DNA of 32,000 nucleotides from Candidatus Thorarchaeota archaeon. GTDB lineage: Archaea; Asgardarchaeota; Heimdallarchaeia; Hodarchaeales; Hodarchaeaceae. Under the pieces are notes generated by a model, which saw only the letters and a program-made list of their open reading frames with translations, ran no database searches and had not been told where the DNA came from. The stretch is taken from positions 330,001 through 362,000 of the forward strand of contig JBHLRO010000001.1 of the NCBI GenBank assembly GCA_048882505.1. Reading direction: 5' to 3'. Positions 10,791 to 26,427 of the stretch are shown here, in pieces. The translations under genes were made by a program, and so were the position numbers. Every line of letters starts with the position of its first letter. Position 1 is the stretch's first letter.

Positions 10791-11711
10791 TCACTGGCTT
10801 TTTGACATGTATTCAATCAAGGTCCCTTTTTTTGGAAATGGAGGAGATTTCGCTCTGTTGGCAGCTTCCTCCACAAAGGATCTGTTTAAATCACAACCGA
10901 TGAATTTCCTTTGGGTTTCAAGACAAACATCCATCATCGTTCCGGACCCTAAAAAAGGGTCGAATACGGTATCACCTGGCTCAGTCGTTGCCAATAATAA
11001 CCTTTTAACAATTTTACTTGGAAAAGTAGCCGTATGACCCTTTTTAGGCTCCGGAGCAAATACCCATACTTGATCATCCATTCTTAATCGGCCCGATTTT
11101 CCAGGAACCATCATTGGCTCGGGATTAAACTTATATTTCCCTTTCTTGGTAAAGTGGAGGATGTACTCGGAACTTTGCCTAACGCGATCCTTTACATTTT
11201 CGGGCATCGGGTTTGGTTTTTCCCAAATTATTAACTCACGCCAGATATAACGTTGCTGCACCAAATTGACGGCAATCCTGAACGGGATACCACATAAAGA
11301 CTTATTACGGATGATCTTATGTCGTGCTGTAACAGAACTTGTATTTCCTTGTTTACTTGAATCAAGTCCATCCCGTCGAAATTCCGGAAACAAATTGTTT
11401 TCCCAATAATTATGATGTGATCTAGAAATTCCGCTACCCATGTAGCTATCTTGCATAATGAAGAAAAGGGATCCATCGCCACGAATTTTGGCAAGGATTG
11501 CCGAATAAATGTCTACGTTGCGTTGAATATACTTTTCTAGGCTTTCGCTGCCGAATTCGCGTTGATCGGAAGAAAAAGACCTCTTTCCCCAGTATGTGGG
11601 ACTGGTGATACAACACTGGATAACATTATCAGGAATTAAATCCATACATTCGAAGGCATCCCCCGAATATAATTTTATACGATCGTTATCATAAAACAAT
11701 TCCGGGGCCAT
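10791..11711 (-). CDS. N4-cytosine/N6-adenine DNA methyltransferase, beta class
   Basis: Motif IV TSPTYWG precedes motif I VFDPFLGSGT; also IIWEKPNPMPENVKDR...EYILHFTK and HTATFP. Start placed at ATG 11711 (track start GTG 11801). Confidence 0.9.
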   Translation of the reverse strand: MAPELFYDNDRIKLYSGDAFECMDLIPDNVIQCCITSPTYWGKRSFSSDQREFGSESLEKYIQRNVDIYSAILAKIRGDGSLFFIMQDSYMGSGISRSHHNYWENNLFPEFRRDGLDSSKQGNTSSVTARHKIIRNKSLCGIPFRIAVNLVQQRYIWRELIIWEKPNPMPENVKDRVRQSSEYILHFTKKGKYKFNPEPMMVPGKSGRLRMDDQVWVFAPEPKKGHTATFPSKIVKRLLLATTEPGDTVFDPFLGSGTMMDVCLETQRKFIGCDLNRSFVEEAANRAKSPPFPKKGTLIEYMSKSQ

Positions 11712-11838
11712 GATGAGATAGAAAAGCTGTCGATTGAAAAGGATTGTCCTCGGGAACGGTGAACGAATTAGTGATGCAAGCAATTGGGGGCGTAATTGCA
11801 CGCGTATACGGTTTATTTGATGGATATAACTCGAGAGA

Positions 11839-12912
11839 TTAAACGACTCTTACAATCCAGCCGTACGGATCATCAATCAAACCATATTGTATTCCTATAA
11901 CCTTATCATGCAATTGTTTGGCGATCGGGCCCACCTGCATATCGTTAACGATGAAATCCTTCCCAGAATAATGAAGACAACCCACTGGGGCTATCGAAGC
12001 TGCGGTACCACTACCAAAAACTTCTGTGATTCTTCCATCTAAGGTACCCTCTGTAATTGTTTTGATAGATAGCGCTTCCTCCTGTACCGTATAACCCAAA
12101 TCTCGGGCAAGTTGGATTGTGCTTTCTCTGGTAACTCCAGGTAATACTGTGCCTGAAGATAAAGGAGCAGTATAGATAACATCTTCATATACAAAAAATA
12201 TGTTCATAGCTCCTACTTCTTCTACGTATTCCTTGTGAATAGCGTCTAGCCAAAGTACTTGGCTATATCCTTTACGAGTCGCTTCATCGCCAACCAATAG
12301 GCTAGCAGCATAATTTCCCCCAGTTTTTGCTGTTCCAGTCCCTCCTGGTGCGGCCCTGATATAATGTTCGGAAACGAATATTTTAATAGGAGCAAATCCC
12401 TCGGGAAAATAAGCTCCAGAAGGGGAAAGAATGATGTAGAAAATATACTCATTCGAAGGTCTTACGCCGAGTCCCCGTTCCGTTCCTATCATGGTAGGAC
12501 GTATGTACAGGGATGAACCAATCTTTTTTGGTGCCCAATCTTTTTCTAACCGGATTAATTCCTTTAATCCTTCGAGATAGGTATCAGGTTCGACCTCAGG
12601 CATCATCATCCTACGAGCGGAGTTATTAAAGCGTTTAACATTCTTATCGGGTCTAAAAAGATTAATATGGCCATCAGGAGTTCTATAAGCTTTCTGGCCT
12701 TCAAAAATCGTCTGGCCGTAATGTAAACATATGGCAGAAGGATCAAGAGCGATTGGACCATACTTACGAATCTCAGGGGTGATCCATCTTTCATTTTCAT
12801 ATTTCATGTAGAACATCCGGTCCGTAAAAACACGGCCGAAACCTAACTTGTCTTCCGAATCAAATTTTACTTTTAATTCTGATTCGGGAATGGAAGAAAT
12901 AGTAAAAGTCAC
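11839..12912 (-). CDS. ilvE: Branched-chain amino acid aminotransferase
   Basis: LHYGQTIFEGQKAY, LFRPDKN..RF..SA.R, SLYIRP, AKTGGNYAAS, EEVGAMNIF, LPGVTRES, GSGTAA. GTG start. Confidence 0.95.
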   Translation of the reverse strand: MTFTISSIPESELKVKFDSEDKLGFGRVFTDRMFYMKYENERWITPEIRKYGPIALDPSAICLHYGQTIFEGQKAYRTPDGHINLFRPDKNVKRFNNSARRMMMPEVEPDTYLEGLKELIRLEKDWAPKKIGSSLYIRPTMIGTERGLGVRPSNEYIFYIILSPSGAYFPEGFAPIKIFVSEHYIRAAPGGTGTAKTGGNYAASLLVGDEATRKGYSQVLWLDAIHKEYVEEVGAMNIFFVYEDVIYTAPLSSGTVLPGVTRESTIQLARDLGYTVQEEALSIKTITEGTLDGRITEVFGSGTAASIAPVGCLHYSGKDFIVNDMQVGPIAKQLHDKVIGIQYGLIDDPYGWIVRVV

Positions 12913-12982
12913 ATTTTGTCCCTTCTAGGTTATTGAAATGGAGAATGGGGAACCGAAAACTGGATTCGTGCCTAAAACTCAA

Positions 12983-13063
12983 ATGATTTGGTCGAAGTAA
13001 AGAGCAAATCATCAGGACTTCTTTATTGTTCTTAATATAAAAACCTTAGATTGTTAAAACAAT
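12983..13063 (-). promoter_or_regulatory. Putative ilvE promoter region with two inverted repeats
   Basis: Minus-strand TTTATATT at 13041..13034; ATGATTTG(12983-12990)/CAAATCAT(13005-13012); ATTGTT-AA-AACAAT at 13050-13063. Confidence 0.4.
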
Positions 13064-13126
13064 AGATTTATTCGAATATCTACGGCCCCAGGTCTGTTAA
13101 ACAAAAATTCTATTGGTCTTTCCGAT

Positions 13127-14221
13127 TTATTCTTTGCCAAAAAAGTTGATTGATTTTCTTGATAATTTTACGTTTGTTAGGATATCAGTTTGATCAATAA
13201 AATGGTCAATTGACCCTAGTGAATACTCAAGACTGGCAAGGGGCTCTTTAATCGTCCTTTTAATTTCCTTGCATATTTTTTCTGCGTTTATTACGACTTG
13301 ATCCCTGGTGTAATATGAAACTGGTTCAATATTCATTTTAGGAATTATTTTCAACTCAATCATTTTTTTTATCAAGATCAGATATGCACGGCATAATAAA
13401 TTTTCCCTTTGTCGCCAAGATCCTTCTTTTGTAATACTTAGAAGCAGAGAATATAAATCTCGACCAATTGAGAGTTTAGAGAATCCTGTTCCAAACCATT
13501 TGGGATAAGGTACATACTTCTTCGATAAAATATATCCAATCCGCATTATATACCGAACTAGTCTTCCTGTTTCAAGTATGGAGCCTAATTCATCGCCAGA
13601 CATCGCTGGTCTCCCTACAAATGCAATTTCCTGTCCAATATGCTCCCAATCTGCTAAGAGTTTAAATCGCCAGACATTTTCTGGAAAATAAGCCATCCTT
13701 GCTTGTACTTGTTCTAGTTTTCCCAGTGTATTGTAAAAAACCTTTCCAGATGTAAACTCTAAGAGTCGCTGTTCTGATAATGTAAGCCAGTCGAATTGAG
13801 AAATTTCCATGGTACTGATTCCTAAAAACGCTTCCAAATACGATCGCACTGTAAACAATTCCACTCTGTGATTAATAGGTTTGGTGTTTTTTTGTACCAG
13901 AGATTGAGTCATCGAATCATTGGGATCAGGTTCTGACCAGTTTGTGGAGTACCCAGAAAACGTATAAGGGAGCTTTTGGCCCAAGAGTTCGTTGATTGCA
14001 GGGCCATGATTTACAAGATCTTCTTCCGTTAAAAAAAGAAGGACACGAGGGCCCCAGTGATGATCAGTCGAAACCTCGTCGTCATAACCTAAAACTTCAG
14101 AACCAGAACCGAGAAGCGCGGCATCGAATTTCAGAAAAGGAAAATTCTCTTGAATAGGCGGAAGCACCGCATGGGAAAAGAACCGTTGTGCCAGCAATAG
14201 GCCAGGTATGAATTCAGGCAT
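13127..14221 (-). CDS. DUF4037 domain-containing protein (nucleotidyltransferase-like N-terminus)
   Basis: GL.LA..F, AALLGSGSEVLGYDDEVSTDHHWGPR, WLTLSEQRLLEFTSGKVF, YVPYPKWFG. Confidence 0.85.
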   Translation of the reverse strand: MPEFIPGLLLAQRFFSHAVLPPIQENFPFLKFDAALLGSGSEVLGYDDEVSTDHHWGPRVLLFLTEEDLVNHGPAINELLGQKLPYTFSGYSTNWSEPDPNDSMTQSLVQKNTKPINHRVELFTVRSYLEAFLGISTMEISQFDWLTLSEQRLLEFTSGKVFYNTLGKLEQVQARMAYFPENVWRFKLLADWEHIGQEIAFVGRPAMSGDELGSILETGRLVRYIMRIGYILSKKYVPYPKWFGTGFSKLSIGRDLYSLLLSITKEGSWRQRENLLCRAYLILIKKMIELKIIPKMNIEPVSYYTRDQVVINAEKICKEIKRTIKEPLASLEYSLGSIDHFIDQTDILTNVKLSRKSINFFGKE

Positions 14222-14294
14222 TTCATCTGACTTTTAGCAAGATCGTTTTAAAATCTAGGTAAATATTGGCTATATGAATTAATAGGGGTATAAA

Positions 14295-15221
14295 ATGGAG
14301 CAAAGCGCGGATTCAAATAGCGAAAAAGTATTAATGGATCAGTCATTATTTCTCACCTCCCGGAAAACTATTGCAAGCTATCCTGGGGGAAAGAGTGATA
14401 GACGTAAACATTCTACGCTATTTTTATCGGTTCCAGATAGAATTCCCTATCTCATTGAACCATTTGCAGGCCTGGCCAACTTTTTCCTCGTTTTATCCCC
14501 ACGAGTTTCAAGAGCATGGCTAAATGATAAAGATCCTGAAATTTTTTCGATATTAAAGAGCATTCAAGATCCCTACCTATTGTCAAAGTTGATCGATCAG
14601 GTTAAATCGATCGAGCCTATCGAAAGAGACGATTATTATGCGTGGAAGTCTTCTACTCCTGATGAAATCTTAGAACGGGCAATAAAACGTCTTATTGTAC
14701 TCAATTGTTCCCCAAACGGTGCAGGTGGAGGATATAGCAGGGAAAAAGCGCATAGGAACTGGTACCGAAGTAAGCCTCCTGTTTGGAGATTTATTCATAA
14801 GATCTTCCGTGAGAAAGAAGTTCGTATTACCAATTGGGACTACTCTAAGGTTTTAACAGCCTTGGCTGATGGACTGCGCCCTCGCTCATCCTTTTGCTAT
14901 CTAGATCCGCCTTATATTGAAGTTGCCAAAAGTGGAAATCTCTACGGGAAGTTGTACAACATTGTGGACTGGGGATTGTTGAAATTCCATTTAAATCAGG
15001 TCCAATGTCACTGGATTCTTTCTAATCGAGATGATGCAAGAATACACGAGCTTTTCACTGGGTATCATATTCTCCAATATAACACATATAATGATATGAA
15101 CAACACACTTGGGAATAATCCGGAAATGCTGGTTAGCAATCTGCCATTTGAGGCCACAACAAGTAGAAGGAAGCTTCTAGAAGCGTTTCTTGATGATTCT
15201 GAAAATTCCCATAAGCCCTAG
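14295..15221 (+). CDS. Dam-family (D12 class, alpha) N6-adenine DNA methyltransferase
   Basis: SYPGGKS, IEPFAG, LNDKD, YLDPPY, WILSN, EMLVSN. Target sequence cannot be inferred. Confidence 0.88.
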   Translation: MEQSADSNSEKVLMDQSLFLTSRKTIASYPGGKSDRRKHSTLFLSVPDRIPYLIEPFAGLANFFLVLSPRVSRAWLNDKDPEIFSILKSIQDPYLLSKLIDQVKSIEPIERDDYYAWKSSTPDEILERAIKRLIVLNCSPNGAGGGYSREKAHRNWYRSKPPVWRFIHKIFREKEVRITNWDYSKVLTALADGLRPRSSFCYLDPPYIEVAKSGNLYGKLYNIVDWGLLKFHLNQVQCHWILSNRDDARIHELFTGYHILQYNTYNDMNNTLGNNPEMLVSNLPFEATTSRRKLLEAFLDDSENSHKP

Positions 15222-22019: not shown

Positions 22020-23834
22020 TTGTCCCAGAATGAAACAAAGAATAAAAGCCTGGGTCAATATTTTACACCACGTTATGTTGCAGAGTTTATGACAAATCTC
22101 ATTTCATGTTCCTCACCAAGATCAATTATCGAACCCGCGGCAGGAACAGGGATTTTTCTTCAGGTGATTTCTGAACGTTTTGTTGAAACTGAAACTATCG
22201 GGATTGAAATCGACTCGACCTTGCCAAACAAGTCGGATTGTCCCGTGATCTATCAAGATTTTTTTGATTATCCTTTGAGCCACAAGTTTTCCATTGTTAT
22301 AGGGAATCCACCTTATGTTAGGTGGAAACATCAGTCACGAGACAAGAGAAAAAGGCTGTCAGAAAGATCTTTCTGGGGTAAACGGATGAACGGTCTAACA
22401 GACTTGCTTCAACCTTTTATCTTCAAATCTGTGGATCATTTGGAAGAAAATGGTGAACTAATCTTTATAACACCGAAATTCTGGCAGCAAACAATTCATT
22501 CATGCCCTTTACGCGACTATTTATTGTCTCAGGGGCAACTTGAACTTGTTATTGATTTCAACGAAAAAATAATATTTCCCCGTGCTTCTCTTAATCTAAT
22601 CATATTCAAATTCGTCAAAAATGCGGAAAATAAATTCATTAAATACGTTCAATTTAAGAAAAAAGGGCGTTTGACTCCAAGCCAGCTCGATCGTGCTAAC
22701 AGGCTCCTGTTTCAGCTTGAGACGATTTCTGTGGAAGAAACGTTTGAAGAGGAAGAGATGAGAGCGTATTGGGCTGCAGCACCAGAGGATCCAATCAAAT
22801 GGACATTTTATCCCATAGAAATCAAGAGACTCATCGCCCAGATAAACGAATCATGCACATATTCCCCTTTAGTGCAATGTCAACAAGGGGGGAGGAGGGC
22901 AAAATTTTCATTGACTCAATTGTATACCAAGGACGATATCATTCGTTTTTCTTTAAAGGAAAATAATTTAGTGGATACCTTATTTAATAATAGAACGTAT
23001 TTCGCCCATCGGGCGATAAAGCCGCTTAATTCCTTCGTTCCCAACCTAAAGAATTCCGTTCCTGAATCTTTACCTAAACGCCCTGTTAGATTGGGGGATA
23101 TTGCGGAGATAGGGAATGGAATGGTTTCGGGATTAGATAAGGCCTTCCTTAGGGATCGTAATACTCGTTTGTTACCTCAGGAGAAGAATTATGTAATAAA
23201 GGTTATAAAAGCCAGAACTCTAGACCGTTTCCTGGTAGGTAAGCCGACGGATTACATTTTTATTGAACAACATTCGTTTTCAGATGAATTGGAATTGAAG
23301 GGCCACCTTCCTAATATCTTCCAAATGCTCATTCCGTATAAGGATCAGCTCAAAAATCGATGGACCCCCCACCCTCTACCCTGGTGGACATGGGCATTCC
23401 CTCGAAACAAGAATCTGATCGAAGAGAACCCAAAGAAAATCTTCGTGCCCTGCAAAGAAAGAATTGACAGAAGAGGATTCATCCGTTTTGCATACGATGA
23501 CCAGGGTTATTATGCAACTCAAGATACCACTGTAATCATAAAGGATGAATGGGTAAAGGAATCTGACGAATACTTACTGGCTTACCTAAACTCCAGCCAG
23601 ATTTTTCAATTCCTAGAAAATGAGGGATTTAGGCGGGGAGGAGTACTGGAATTTTCAGAAAAGCCTCTTTCTGAGATTCCTATCAGGTTAATTAATTGGC
23701 AAAGAGATGAGGAAGTCGAGATTCATAACGAAATCTCCAAACAAGTAGCCAAATTCAGGAAACGATCGTCTCCGGACTTTGTTGAAGAAATAGTTTCGAC
23801 TAATGATGAATTACTGAAGCAACTCCTAAATTAA
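22020..23834 (+). CDS. Gamma-class N6-adenine DNA methyltransferase (M.TaqI/Eco57I-like) with C-terminal specificity domain
   Basis: LGQYFTP, IIEPAAGTGIF, GIEID, IGNPPY (22305-22316), LGDIAEIGNG..SG.D.AF, YLLAYLNS, LSEIPI. TTG start after AGGGA. No nuclease domain seen. Confidence 0.9.
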   Translation: MSQNETKNKSLGQYFTPRYVAEFMTNLISCSSPRSIIEPAAGTGIFLQVISERFVETETIGIEIDSTLPNKSDCPVIYQDFFDYPLSHKFSIVIGNPPYVRWKHQSRDKRKRLSERSFWGKRMNGLTDLLQPFIFKSVDHLEENGELIFITPKFWQQTIHSCPLRDYLLSQGQLELVIDFNEKIIFPRASLNLIIFKFVKNAENKFIKYVQFKKKGRLTPSQLDRANRLLFQLETISVEETFEEEEMRAYWAAAPEDPIKWTFYPIEIKRLIAQINESCTYSPLVQCQQGGRRAKFSLTQLYTKDDIIRFSLKENNLVDTLFNNRTYFAHRAIKPLNSFVPNLKNSVPESLPKRPVRLGDIAEIGNGMVSGLDKAFLRDRNTRLLPQEKNYVIKVIKARTLDRFLVGKPTDYIFIEQHSFSDELELKGHLPNIFQMLIPYKDQLKNRWTPHPLPWWTWAFPRNKNLIEENPKKIFVPCKERIDRRGFIRFAYDDQGYYATQDTTVIIKDEWVKESDEYLLAYLNSSQIFQFLENEGFRRGGVLEFSEKPLSEIPIRLINWQRDEEVEIHNEISKQVAKFRKRSSPDFVEEIVSTNDELLKQLLN

Positions 23835-23868
23835 CCATAAATGCAGCGTACATCGGAAGCGAGGCAAA

Positions 23869-26427
23869 TTGGGTTCCCAGGGAAAGAGAGTGAACAAAAC
23901 CAACCTCCTGCTTGATTTTGGCCCGAATAGCGAGCTGGCCAAGAATACTATTCGATTTTTGCACAGGGCCCTGGAAGAATCGCTTAATATGGACGATGAG
24001 GACATGAGTCAAGAAAAAAAACAGCTTCTTGATCATATAGTAAGGTATGATAAAAGACATCTGTTAGAACTCGGCCAGTTCTATAAAATACCTGGGAAGG
24101 AACCGAGATTCGTTTTATTTGGAATACAAACCTATTTCGCGCTGTTCATTAAGTTATTTGCGGCTGAAGTTGCTCACCTCCGCACACGGAAACATTACGA
24201 GGTATCCTACTTAAAAAATATAGTGAGTACGTATTCAGAAACTCCTGAGAAACTTAAATGTGTTTTTGAAGATCTAGAAAGTGGAAAACTATTTCTTCGT
24301 CTGATAAAGGTTAGGAATCTTATTGATCAAAGCATCTTCTCGTGGTACCTAAATGAATGGTCTGGAGAACTAGCTAATGTCATTTTAAAAATAGCATCTC
24401 GACTTTCGGAATATAATTTCAATTTTAAAAAGGAAAAAAGCAAAACAGATGATGTGTTCAAATCAATATACCTTGAACTTATACCAAAAGCTATTCGTCA
24501 TAAGTTAGGAGAATTTTACACGCCTCATTGGTTGGTTCAGTTTTCATTAGATAAGATTGGATATAATCTCGCTTCTTTCAAGAAGATTGCCCGAAATACA
24601 AGGGATCTCTTGGCCCCTTTTCGTCTTAGGGTAATTGATCCCTCATGCGGTTCTGGATCATTTCTTATTGAAGTATTAAATAGATTAAGATCATATGCTG
24701 AAAGGTACGGCTTAGAAAATGAGATGAGGAAGGTAATTTGCGAGAATATAGTTGGAATAGACCTTAATCCCCTGGCAGTATTAGCAACAAAAGCAAATTA
24801 CCTGATCTCAGTACTAGATTTGTTTCCACTAGAAAAGGAAATTGGACTGCCAGTTTTCCTAGCTGACGCTGTTTCACCAAAACCATCCGAGGTTTTATCC
24901 TCGTTGGGCGAATTTGATTTTCTTATTGGTAATCCCCCCTGGCTATTAATGGATAGGTTGCCCGTTGAATATCGGGAGGGAATGCAATCCCTCTGGGAAT
25001 ATTATGGGTTATTTACGCTAAAAGGATATCAAGCACAGCACGGAGGAGGAAAAAAAGATTTTTCTACATTATTCACCTATGTATGTTTGGATAGGTATCT
25101 TAAAAGTTCAGGAAAGGTTAGCTTCCTAATAACTCAGTCTGTGTTCAAAACTGTTGGAGCAGGAGAAGGTTTTCGTAAATTCAAGGTAAATGGCAAACCG
25201 TACAGAGTTACAGAGGTTCATGATTTTGGAGAAATTCGACCATTTAAAGGTGTAAATAACAGAGCCGTATTATTGATACTGGAGGGAGGCCATGAGACAG
25301 TTTACCCCGTTAATTATATGATTTGGATGCCAACCAGAAAAATGGACAGAGACTACCCCTGGCCAAGTTTTATCCAATCAATGCATCCAATACGCTTGGT
25401 CGCCATCCCCTCCATATCGACCAACATTCTCTCACCTTGGATAACAGTTCCTATTGATGTCCTTCCTATCGTAAAGAAGATTTACGGACGAAGTGAATAT
25501 TCCTCTAAGGAGGGAATAAACAGCGGGGGGTTAAACGGGGTTTTTTGGATAAGGCCTATGGAAATCCTATCCGCAATCCCCAGATCAGTTCCATTGAGAA
25601 AGGATTTACTTAAGCTCCCCGGAAGTCAGAAAACTCTAGCGATCCTCGCAATCCAAAATGTCACTCATGGTATGAAAAAGAAAGTAAAAAAAGTATTTGC
25701 GCGGATTGAGGATTTTTTTGTGTATCCTCTCTTGAAGTCCCGAAATGTTGAGAGATGGAAGATCAATAATTATAATTACGCATTACAAATGCAGGATCCT
25801 GTCAAACGGAAAGGATATGATGAAGATTGGGTTATTAACAATTTTCCGCTGACCTACGCGTATCTGAGAGAATTTAAGCAAATACTCCTCAGAAGAAAGT
25901 CGAAGGTTGTGCAACAATTGATACAACGAGGCCCCTTCTATTCAATGTACTCCGTAGGTGTCTATACATATTCCAAATTCAAGGTTGTCTGGAGTCAAAT
26001 GGGATCAAACCTACAGGCATGCGTTATATCTCGAGTTCAAGACAAGTACCTGGGAAATAAGCTAATTCTTCCTGAACACGTTCTGGCTTACATTCCAGTG
26101 GAAGATGAAAACGAGGCGCATTATCTCTGTGCCATTCTTAACTCAATGGCGGCCAATCTAGTTCTAAGATCAATAGCTCGAGGCACTAAAAGCTTTGGTA
26201 CTCCCCGTTTGGTGGATAAAACGATAAGAATACACAAATTTGACCAAAAAAACCAATCACATATGAAATTGGCGCGCCTCTCATTAAAGGCGCATAATTT
26301 CGCTCGATTAGGGTCATCCAAATTAATAGAGATTGAAAAAAAAATCGAAATGAGTATCGCAAACTTGTATAAGATTACTCCAGAAGAATACCTAAAGATT
26401 CAACAATGGTTGGAGATTATATCTTGA
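23869..26427 (+). CDS. Type IIG-like gamma-class N6-adenine methyltransferase-specificity protein lacking an N-terminal nuclease
   Basis: LFGIQTYFAL, LGEFYTPHWL, VIDPSCGSGSFL, GIDLNPLAV, IGNPPW (24931-24942), FKVVW, EAHYLCAILNS. A stop lies 42 nt upstream in frame. Confidence 0.85.
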   Translation: MGSQGKRVNKTNLLLDFGPNSELAKNTIRFLHRALEESLNMDDEDMSQEKKQLLDHIVRYDKRHLLELGQFYKIPGKEPRFVLFGIQTYFALFIKLFAAEVAHLRTRKHYEVSYLKNIVSTYSETPEKLKCVFEDLESGKLFLRLIKVRNLIDQSIFSWYLNEWSGELANVILKIASRLSEYNFNFKKEKSKTDDVFKSIYLELIPKAIRHKLGEFYTPHWLVQFSLDKIGYNLASFKKIARNTRDLLAPFRLRVIDPSCGSGSFLIEVLNRLRSYAERYGLENEMRKVICENIVGIDLNPLAVLATKANYLISVLDLFPLEKEIGLPVFLADAVSPKPSEVLSSLGEFDFLIGNPPWLLMDRLPVEYREGMQSLWEYYGLFTLKGYQAQHGGGKKDFSTLFTYVCLDRYLKSSGKVSFLITQSVFKTVGAGEGFRKFKVNGKPYRVTEVHDFGEIRPFKGVNNRAVLLILEGGHETVYPVNYMIWMPTRKMDRDYPWPSFIQSMHPIRLVAIPSISTNILSPWITVPIDVLPIVKKIYGRSEYSSKEGINSGGLNGVFWIRPMEILSAIPRSVPLRKDLLKLPGSQKTLAILAIQNVTHGMKKKVKKVFARIEDFFVYPLLKSRNVERWKINNYNYALQMQDPVKRKGYDEDWVINNFPLTYAYLREFKQILLRRKSKVVQQLIQRGPFYSMYSVGVYTYSKFKVVWSQMGSNLQACVISRVQDKYLGNKLILPEHVLAYIPVEDENEAHYLCAILNSMAANLVLRSIARGTKSFGTPRLVDKTIRIHKFDQKNQSHMKLARLSLKAHNFARLGSSKLIEIEKKIEMSIANLYKITPEEYLKIQQWLEIIS

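Follow-up and report, generated by a model that had tools for sequence, protein, structure and literature searches.

PIP-like C-terminal tails on two solitary DNA methyltransferases of an Asgard archaeon and their possible docking to PCNA

Two DNA methyltransferases encoded in a 32,000-nucleotide stretch of an archaeal genome (C1:330001-362000, hereafter the window; genome size 4.3 Mb, completeness 94.6%) end in short tails that resemble the PCNA-interacting peptide (PIP) boxes of archaeal replication and repair enzymes. The first, MTase1, is a beta-class (N6_N4, PF01555) enzyme of 307 amino acids (10791..11714, minus strand), and the second, MTase2, is a divergent Dam-like (D12, alpha-class, PF02086) DNA adenine methyltransferase of 308 amino acids (14295..15221, plus strand). 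In Asgard genomes, this tail type shows a statistical association with methylases and with clients of PCNA. We lean towards the view that the tails dock onto PCNA and so recruit the methylases to DNA that has just been replicated; PCNA as the receptor and the coupling of methylation to replication are the parts we infer. Behind each catalytic core, a flexible linker would lead to a short amphipathic peptide of the form L-x-x-[F/Y]-[L/M], and this peptide would dock into the hydrophobic pocket of PCNA in the manner of the C-terminal PIP boxes of polymerases, Fen1, the large subunit of replication factor C (RFC-L) and glycosylases of the same archaeon. Methylases tethered to the clamps left on new DNA would then methylate hemimethylated sites soon after the passage of the fork. 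A first-pass annotation of the window had proposed such PCNA-coupled methylation, and the proposal is partly borne out: the enzymes are solitary and apparently active and the tail type is tied to methylases and PCNA clients, while the conservation of the MTase2 tail and the Tyr-Met fit of the MTase1 tail speak against it.

The PCNA clients of the genome itself define what such a tail looks like in this organism. The C-termini of Pfam-verified clients read GQINLMEFFT in PolB, RQNLNQFF in a second PolB, RQSLDQFF in Fen1, KSLTDFFSSEI in RFC-L, KTSLESFFS in the Y-family polymerase (PolY), TTLSEFF in SRAP, KGLDRFLG in UDG, VPLESFFS in an HhH-GPD glycosylase, ASLDAFF in a DUF4130 protein, QKRLTDFF in Nre and QYGLSEFFG in a DUF72 protein. 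The resulting consensus is xxxLxxF[F/L], located in the last dozen residues after basic residues, with Gln optional and F-L allowed. The tail of MTase2 (residues 286-308, EATTSRRKLLEAFLDDSENSHKP; 15150..15218, plus strand) fits this consensus well with RRKLLEAFL, its PIP-like core RKLLEAFL lying at 15168..15191. The tail of MTase1 (residues 288-307; 10794..10853, minus strand) consists of a Pro/Lys linker, AKSPPFPKKG, followed by TLIEYMSKSQ, and fits the consensus partially with KKGTLIEYM; the PIP-like core KGTLIEYM (10806..10829, minus strand) has Leu in position 4 and Tyr-Met in positions 7-8. A codon count on the translations shows that the first-pass annotation had both open reading frames (ORFs) and both tails exactly right, placing KGTLIEYM at 10829..10806 on the minus strand and RKLLEAFL at 15168..15191 on the plus strand.

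Both tails depart from the canonical PIP box Qxx[LIM]xx[FY][FY]: they have Lys or Arg in place of the Gln in position 1, and positions 7-8 hold Y-M in MTase1 and F-L in MTase2. The basic residue in position 1 had earlier been entered as a caveat, and it is no real objection, because Gln is likewise missing from the tails of RFC-L, PolY, SRAP and UDG in this genome. The motifs are terminal and lie on low-confidence linkers, ending 4 and 9 residues before the stop, with a predicted local distance difference test score (pLDDT) of 57-63 in the tails after catalytic cores exceeding 90. In the AlphaFold2 (AF2) models, the MTase1 tail (pLDDT ~60) runs as coil through residues 290-298 and then as a short helix through 299-305, and the MTase2 tail (pLDDT 57-59) forms a low-confidence helix at 290-304. 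Such low-confidence tails after confidently modelled cores are as would be expected for flexible docking peptides. With the archaeal PIP-box clients (PolB, Fen1, RFC-L, Y-family polymerase, UDG, Nre) the two enzymes share a terminal xxxLxxF[F/L] on a basic flexible linker, often without Gln; they differ from them in that the carriers are DNA methyltransferases, that the F-F or F-L of the clients is replaced by Y-M in MTase1, and that docking is predicted.

The tail motif exceeds chance only in context, through its enrichment on methylases and its recurrence in homologues. A hidden Markov model built from paralogues identified 24 PF01555-like ORFs in the genome. Seven of them carry L..[FY][FLMIY] in the last 12 amino acids, against 119 of 3392 ORFs overall (3.5%; Fisher p=1.2e-5). 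The seven ends are KSLASYFQP, VKLSEFL, KGLDSFME, EGLVRYLDR, RNLPYFLDSH, TSLDQFL and, in MTase1, GTLIEYMSKSQ; the six tailed paralogues other than MTase1 were confirmed as PF01555 by Pfam. Methylases of related genomes end in IVLDKFFD, RQPLDKFLQ, RRKQLDDFLPSLNEKAE and similar sequences, and most members of a big Asgard-rich family end in PKLTDF[LIM]. Among 31 distinct PF01555 methylases from five bacterial genomes, the strict motif was found in none and the loose motif in one. The strict motif was present in 3 of 29 PF01555 methylases from five genomes of non-Asgard archaea: two of the carriers are Bathyarchaeial orthologues of MTase1, and the third, from Nitrosopumilus, has the motif at the end of its catalytic domain and no tail.

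The same controls bear on the possibility that the tails are generic structural ends of methyltransferase folds, present wherever the families occur. Bacterial members of these families lack the tail motif, most MTase2 orthologues end without a tail and AF2 packs neither tail confidently on its core. Some paralogue families do hold a similar sequence, FPNLxTLxxYV, internally, with about 50 further residues after it, but we consider this explanation highly improbable, and for PF01555 a generic structural end was rejected by the bacterial controls.

Homologues of the two enzymes retain the motif in different ways. In the MTase1 family, the post-core tail is highly variable. Among its named archaeal members, 7 of 9 have LxxF/Y in the last 12 amino acids; among the bacterial ones, 1 of 14 does (p=0.001; the members are not phylogenetically independent). 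The motif is thus common in archaea and near-absent in bacteria, a contrast that the first-pass annotation had proposed to check. It turns up again in many separate sub-clades of the family. Orthologues with 69-93% identity, from the Heimdall and Helarchaeota sub-clade, carry it as TLIEFM, KLTEYI, KITDYL, TLLQYI and SILQYV. The MTase2 family comprises 48 sequences and bears Asgard names only. Tails of at least 12 amino acids are present in 8 of 43 members, and six of the eight carry L..[FYW]L (LEAFL, LKAFL, LEEFL, LDKFL, LDTWL and LIKYL) against a background of 2.7% (binomial ~1e-8). These six members represent four separate lineages nested among tail-less sisters, with LDKFL, LDTWL and LIKYL coming from lineages other than that of MTase2, which means that the same peptide was gained, or lost, more than once. 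In the clade of MTase2 itself, a tail occurs in three sequences only, those of the source genome, of its closest relative and of one further member with 67% identity; the core motif of the closest genome is RKSLKAFL and that of P0123 GKSLEEFL. Conservation of LxxF/Y among orthologues, on which the docking proposal had been made to depend, is uneven: in MTase1 it covers Heimdall, Helarchaeota and most archaeal members, and in MTase2 the motif is kept where a tail exists, with most orthologues tail-less. Orthologue conservation is better for the MTase1 tail, and motif fit is better for the MTase2 tail (F-L, compare KGLDRFLG of UDG).

The enrichment on methylases (p=1.2e-5), the four MTase2 lineages (P ~1e-8) and the split between archaeal and bacterial homologues are hard to obtain by chance, and the Leu and aromatic positions are retained while their flanks vary. 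For these reasons we regard it as unlikely that the tails are functionless, that is, chance matches on short, fast-evolving C-terminal extensions (generated, for example, by stop-codon shifts) of ordinary untethered solitary enzymes. A number of observations nevertheless favour that explanation or otherwise weigh against docking to PCNA. The loose pattern [LIM]xx[FY][hydrophobic], from which the original proposal had started, has a match within the final 20 residues in 458 of the 3392 ORFs of this genome (13.5%) and in 5 of the 25 ORFs of the window; as written it shows no excess over chance, and we rejected it as stand-alone evidence. The background is a crude ORF set of our own (ORFs of at least 100 amino acids, greedy overlap removal, no annotation), and the enrichment statistics are weakened by resting on this set and on non-independent paralogues. 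Both tails lack the Gln and the di-aromatic F-F of the strongest clients, and the Y-M of MTase1 is a weaker PIP match than the F-L or F-F of its paralogues. The tail of MTase1 is relaxed relative to its core, with a ratio of non-synonymous to synonymous substitution rates (dN/dS) of 0.33 against 0.04 in comparison with the closest genome. Of 11 congeneric orthologues, 10 lack the tail of MTase2 and, like most of the family, end right after ..LISNxP. In the comparison with the closest genome, 23 codons of this tail give a dN/dS of ~1.4, and the Leu, Phe and Leu of the motif are retained; such a value would be typical of a short linear motif, yet is indistinguishable from drift on one genome pair and would fit neutral drift at all but three residues. 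Because the MTase2 tail is absent from most orthologues and has this dN/dS, it reads as a young, recurrently gained add-on and as no conserved feature of the family. Methylases of Nitrosopumilus and Thermoplasmata are devoid of such tails despite the presence of PCNA.

The same caution extends to the predicted complex with the clamp. Of the two tails for which modelling with PCNA had been suggested, that of MTase2 (residues 262-308) was modelled with residues 1-258 of the canonical PCNA of the genome (102-row alignment), and the outcome was classed as weak support: the complex score is 0.44 (runs 0.44, 0.52 and 0.29) against 0.00 for the best of three controls, with a contact agreement of at least 57% and a partner pLDDT of at least 41 across the runs. 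Of 80 solved complexes, 58 pass the mark set for this score, and so do 2 of 110 mismatched pairs; at scores of 0.60 or less, the mark is reached by only 7 of those 80 solved complexes and by both of the passing mismatches. A weak pass of this class is wrong in more cases than it is right, except where the guess was already a likely one. Because many complexes of PIP peptides with PCNA have been solved, the pass may moreover reflect likeness rather than binding.

The tails could also be a real short linear motif meant for another partner, such as a divergent PCNA-like clamp or another hub protein, or could serve self-association, autoinhibition or degradation. At least one additional, divergent PCNA-like gene is present in the genome; the tails are predicted as low-confidence amphipathic helices, which could pack in cis or in trans; non-Asgard archaea that possess PCNA mostly lack the tails; and a tRNA-synthetase-like protein ends in KNKLDKFLVSD, so that the carriers are not all DNA enzymes. 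The same tail type is nevertheless found on eleven classic PCNA-client families of the genome, and placing an unrelated protein in the position of PCNA brings the complex score to 0.00, which counts as weak support only. We hold a receptor other than PCNA, or a role in cis, to be rather improbable. The divergent PCNA-like gene is located on C11 (L002:970-1812, minus strand) and matches PCNA_N only, at 23.7 bits. The canonical PCNA, encoded on C67 (L001:1489-2361), bears a long acidic tail at its C-terminus.

Several further proteins of the genome have ends of a similar kind. The tRNA-synthetase-like protein belongs to class I (PF00579, Trp/Tyr type; C4:38171-39310, minus strand), and its KNKLDKFLVSD may be a chance match or mark an unexpected clamp client. 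A TIM-barrel protein resembling AP endonuclease 2 and xylose isomerase (C13:37603-38484, minus strand) ends in LLKRLRAFLS and adjoins the tailed methylase at C13:36451-37536, which ends in KSLASYFQP. Two proteins without a Pfam family carry canonical-looking terminal PIP boxes and are candidate PCNA clients: one of 349 amino acids with QQELHGFFRK (C11:13951-15000) and one of 201 amino acids with QTSLRAFLAHGDDDRP (C23:32809-33414).

Both catalytic cores bear the marks of functional enzymes. The open frame of MTase1 extends over 10791..11801 on the minus strand, giving 336 amino acids from a GTG at 11801; the start is likely the ATG at 11714, because homologues align from there. The protein is a member of PF01555 (N6_N4_Mtase; 3.7e-40, 138.7 bits against a Pfam gathering cut-off of 26.7). 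Its catalytic motif IV, TSPTYW (residues 37-42; 11589..11606, minus strand), is a variant of [SD]PP[YF] in which the third position is Thr instead of Pro throughout the family, and residues S38, P39, T40, Y41 and W42 are invariant among 90 homologues. The S-adenosylmethionine (SAM)-binding motif I, DPFLGSGT (residues 252-259; 10938..10961, minus strand), is located C-terminally to motif IV, with P253, F254, G256 and S257 invariant in the same 90 homologues. This order of motifs is that of the beta class; the base modified may be cytosine (N4) or adenine (N6). Of the proteins with a solved structure, M.MboIIA (an N4-cytosine methyltransferase), DpnA and CcrM are the nearest to MTase1.

MTase2 is a weak but significant member of PF02086 (MethyltransfD12; 2e-9, 38 bits against a cut-off of 22). 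Its motif I, EPFAGLAN (14457..14480, plus strand), and catalytic motif IV, DPPY (14904..14915, plus strand), contain E55, P56, F57 and G59, and D204, P205, P206 and Y207, respectively, all invariant among 42 homologues. The protein was rejected as Dam proper, as it scores 40.7 bits with TIGR00571 (NCBIfam) against a cut-off of 114.85; it is a relative of Dam for which GATC specificity is not to be assumed. The sole solved relative is PDB 7m6b (1.4e-10), whose alignment over the tail is of low confidence and was set aside as uninformative. The dN/dS of the cores in comparison with the closest genome is low (0.04 in MTase1 and 0.15 in MTase2), and both genes are therefore maintained; they encode what are apparently active, solitary DNA methyltransferases under purifying selection. 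The first-pass annotation had attributed the pair to two unrelated folds, which we reject: both enzymes have the class I Rossmann fold of SAM methyltransferases and differ in their permutation class (alpha/D12 for MTase2, beta/N6_N4 for MTase1).

The solitary status of MTase1 contrasts with the habits of its family. A search of 40 related genomes found an orthologue in just one, yet the family, which includes Type II restriction-modification methylases, is broadly spread in bacteria and archaea at 55-70% core identity. Among its named genomes, 19 of 22 have the methylase gene next to one for a conserved Cys-rich protein of ~230 amino acids, and the copies of this protein in a Bathyarchaeon and in a bacterium of the Paracoccaceae share 45% identity. 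This partner matched no Pfam family; its C-terminal part is Cys-rich, it contains an HNH-like motif, DHRxP..GSN..NWQL..N, and its gene is either convergent with the methylase gene or located directly upstream of it (for example L158:5905-6600 and L160:5859-6563, both on the minus strand, and the matching positions of L050-L068). On one Paracoccaceae chromosome, the pair of methylase and partner is present twice, adjoining an IS1595 transposase. The partner is probably the cognate restriction endonuclease. It is absent beside the Heimdall copies of MTase1, including those of the window and of the closest relative, and from the source genome as a whole (best tblastn E 0.06, at a genome completeness of 94.6%). 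MTase1 is for this reason taken to be an ordinary restriction-modification methylase turned solitary through the loss of its nuclease. The MTase2 family has variable neighbours, and no conserved partner gene was found in it.

In the window, the two genes are surrounded by genes for a GH38 mannosidase, a class IV aminotransferase, a DUF4037 protein and cysteine synthase (Pfam), in an order identical to that of the closest relative, Heimdallarchaeota TM2S.58. With metabolic genes as neighbours, the nuclease candidate missing and no conserved partner of MTase2, the earlier statement that the enzymes have no restriction partner holds for both. The DUF4037 protein (364 amino acids; 13127-14221, minus strand) is encoded between the two methylases, divergently from MTase2 and in the same arrangement in the closest relative, and no connection of this protein to methylation was found. 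The window contains four methylase genes in total. The other two are gamma-class methylase-like genes on the plus strand, at 22020-23834 (matches to Eco57I, N6_Mtase and TaqI_C) and 23869-26427 (matches to Eco57I, N6_Mtase and MmeI_Mtase); they stand in tandem and resemble a Type IIG/IIL-like or BREX-like module. No convincing PIP-like terminal motif was seen in either of them (22020-26427). The source organism is an Asgard archaeon with a PCNA gene. The guess of an Asgard-like archaeon, made from the sequence alone, was right, because the nearest homologues of both methylases carry Heimdallarchaeota or Hodarchaeales names.

Eukaryotic DNMT1 is said, in work of Chuang and colleagues from 1997, to contain a PCNA-binding domain and to perform replication-coupled maintenance methylation. 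The likeness to the enzymes of the window would lie in a DNA methyltransferase with a PIP-type peptide for PCNA and in methylation that follows the fork. DNMT1, a large enzyme that methylates cytosine at C5, has its PIP box at the N-terminus, whereas MTase1 and MTase2 are small, belong to N6/N4-type families (Pfam) and carry C-terminal motifs, so that the resemblance is a functional analogy only and no homology is implied. Dam, of the alpha class, and CcrM, of the beta class, are similar to the two enzymes as stand-alone methyltransferases without a nuclease, and MTase2 matches the Dam model weakly; neither MTase1 nor MTase2 reaches the equivalog cut-offs. We know of no clamp-binding tail in Dam or CcrM. 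In a literature search that did not cover most subscription journals, we found no report of coupling between archaeal or Asgard methyltransferases and PCNA, or between bacterial methyltransferases and the beta clamp.

Bacterial homologues of MTase1 (L050-L057) display a C-terminal extension of 50-70 amino acids with a conserved S[ST]QL[ATIV][LF]LEER, located ~30-45 residues past the methylase core. The carriers belong to Elusimicrobia, Cloacimonadota, Planctomycetota, Ignavibacteria, Bacteroidales and Firestonebacteria, and the element resembles the bacterial beta-clamp-binding motif QLxLF. In another PF01555 family, some members end in ..GQHLLFSG.., ..EITLFSL.. or ..LELFDL... Such QLxLF-like elements on methylases could be a bacterial counterpart of clamp tethering.

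Beyond the two enzymes, we tentatively propose, with some doubt, that a large share of the DNA methylation in Heimdall-group Asgard archaea is tied to the replisome, and that many unrelated solitary and restriction-linked methyltransferases of prokaryotic type have repeatedly and independently gained PCNA-docking tails. In the closest relatives of eukaryotes, this would be a prokaryotic counterpart of maintenance methylation by DNMT1 paired with PCNA. In its boldest form, the proposal would make clamp tethering a cross-domain habit of this enzyme class, with the bacterial S[ST]QLxLLEER element acting like QLxLF. New in the present analysis are the D12-class example with its seemingly young, recurrently gained tail, the bacterial and non-Asgard controls, the suggested restriction-modification origin of MTase1, the dN/dS figures and a first, weak in silico prediction of binding. 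To our knowledge, replication-coupled DNA methylation has so far been known only for DNMT1. If the tails bind PCNA, it would be no eukaryotic invention, being performed by Asgard archaea with ordinary N6/N4 methylases, and a whole enzyme class would be added to the archaeal PCNA interactome. For the restriction-linked paralogues, this would explain how nascent DNA is protected in a cell with about two dozen methylases; for the solitary enzymes, it would provide a mechanism for the faithful inheritance of methylation marks.

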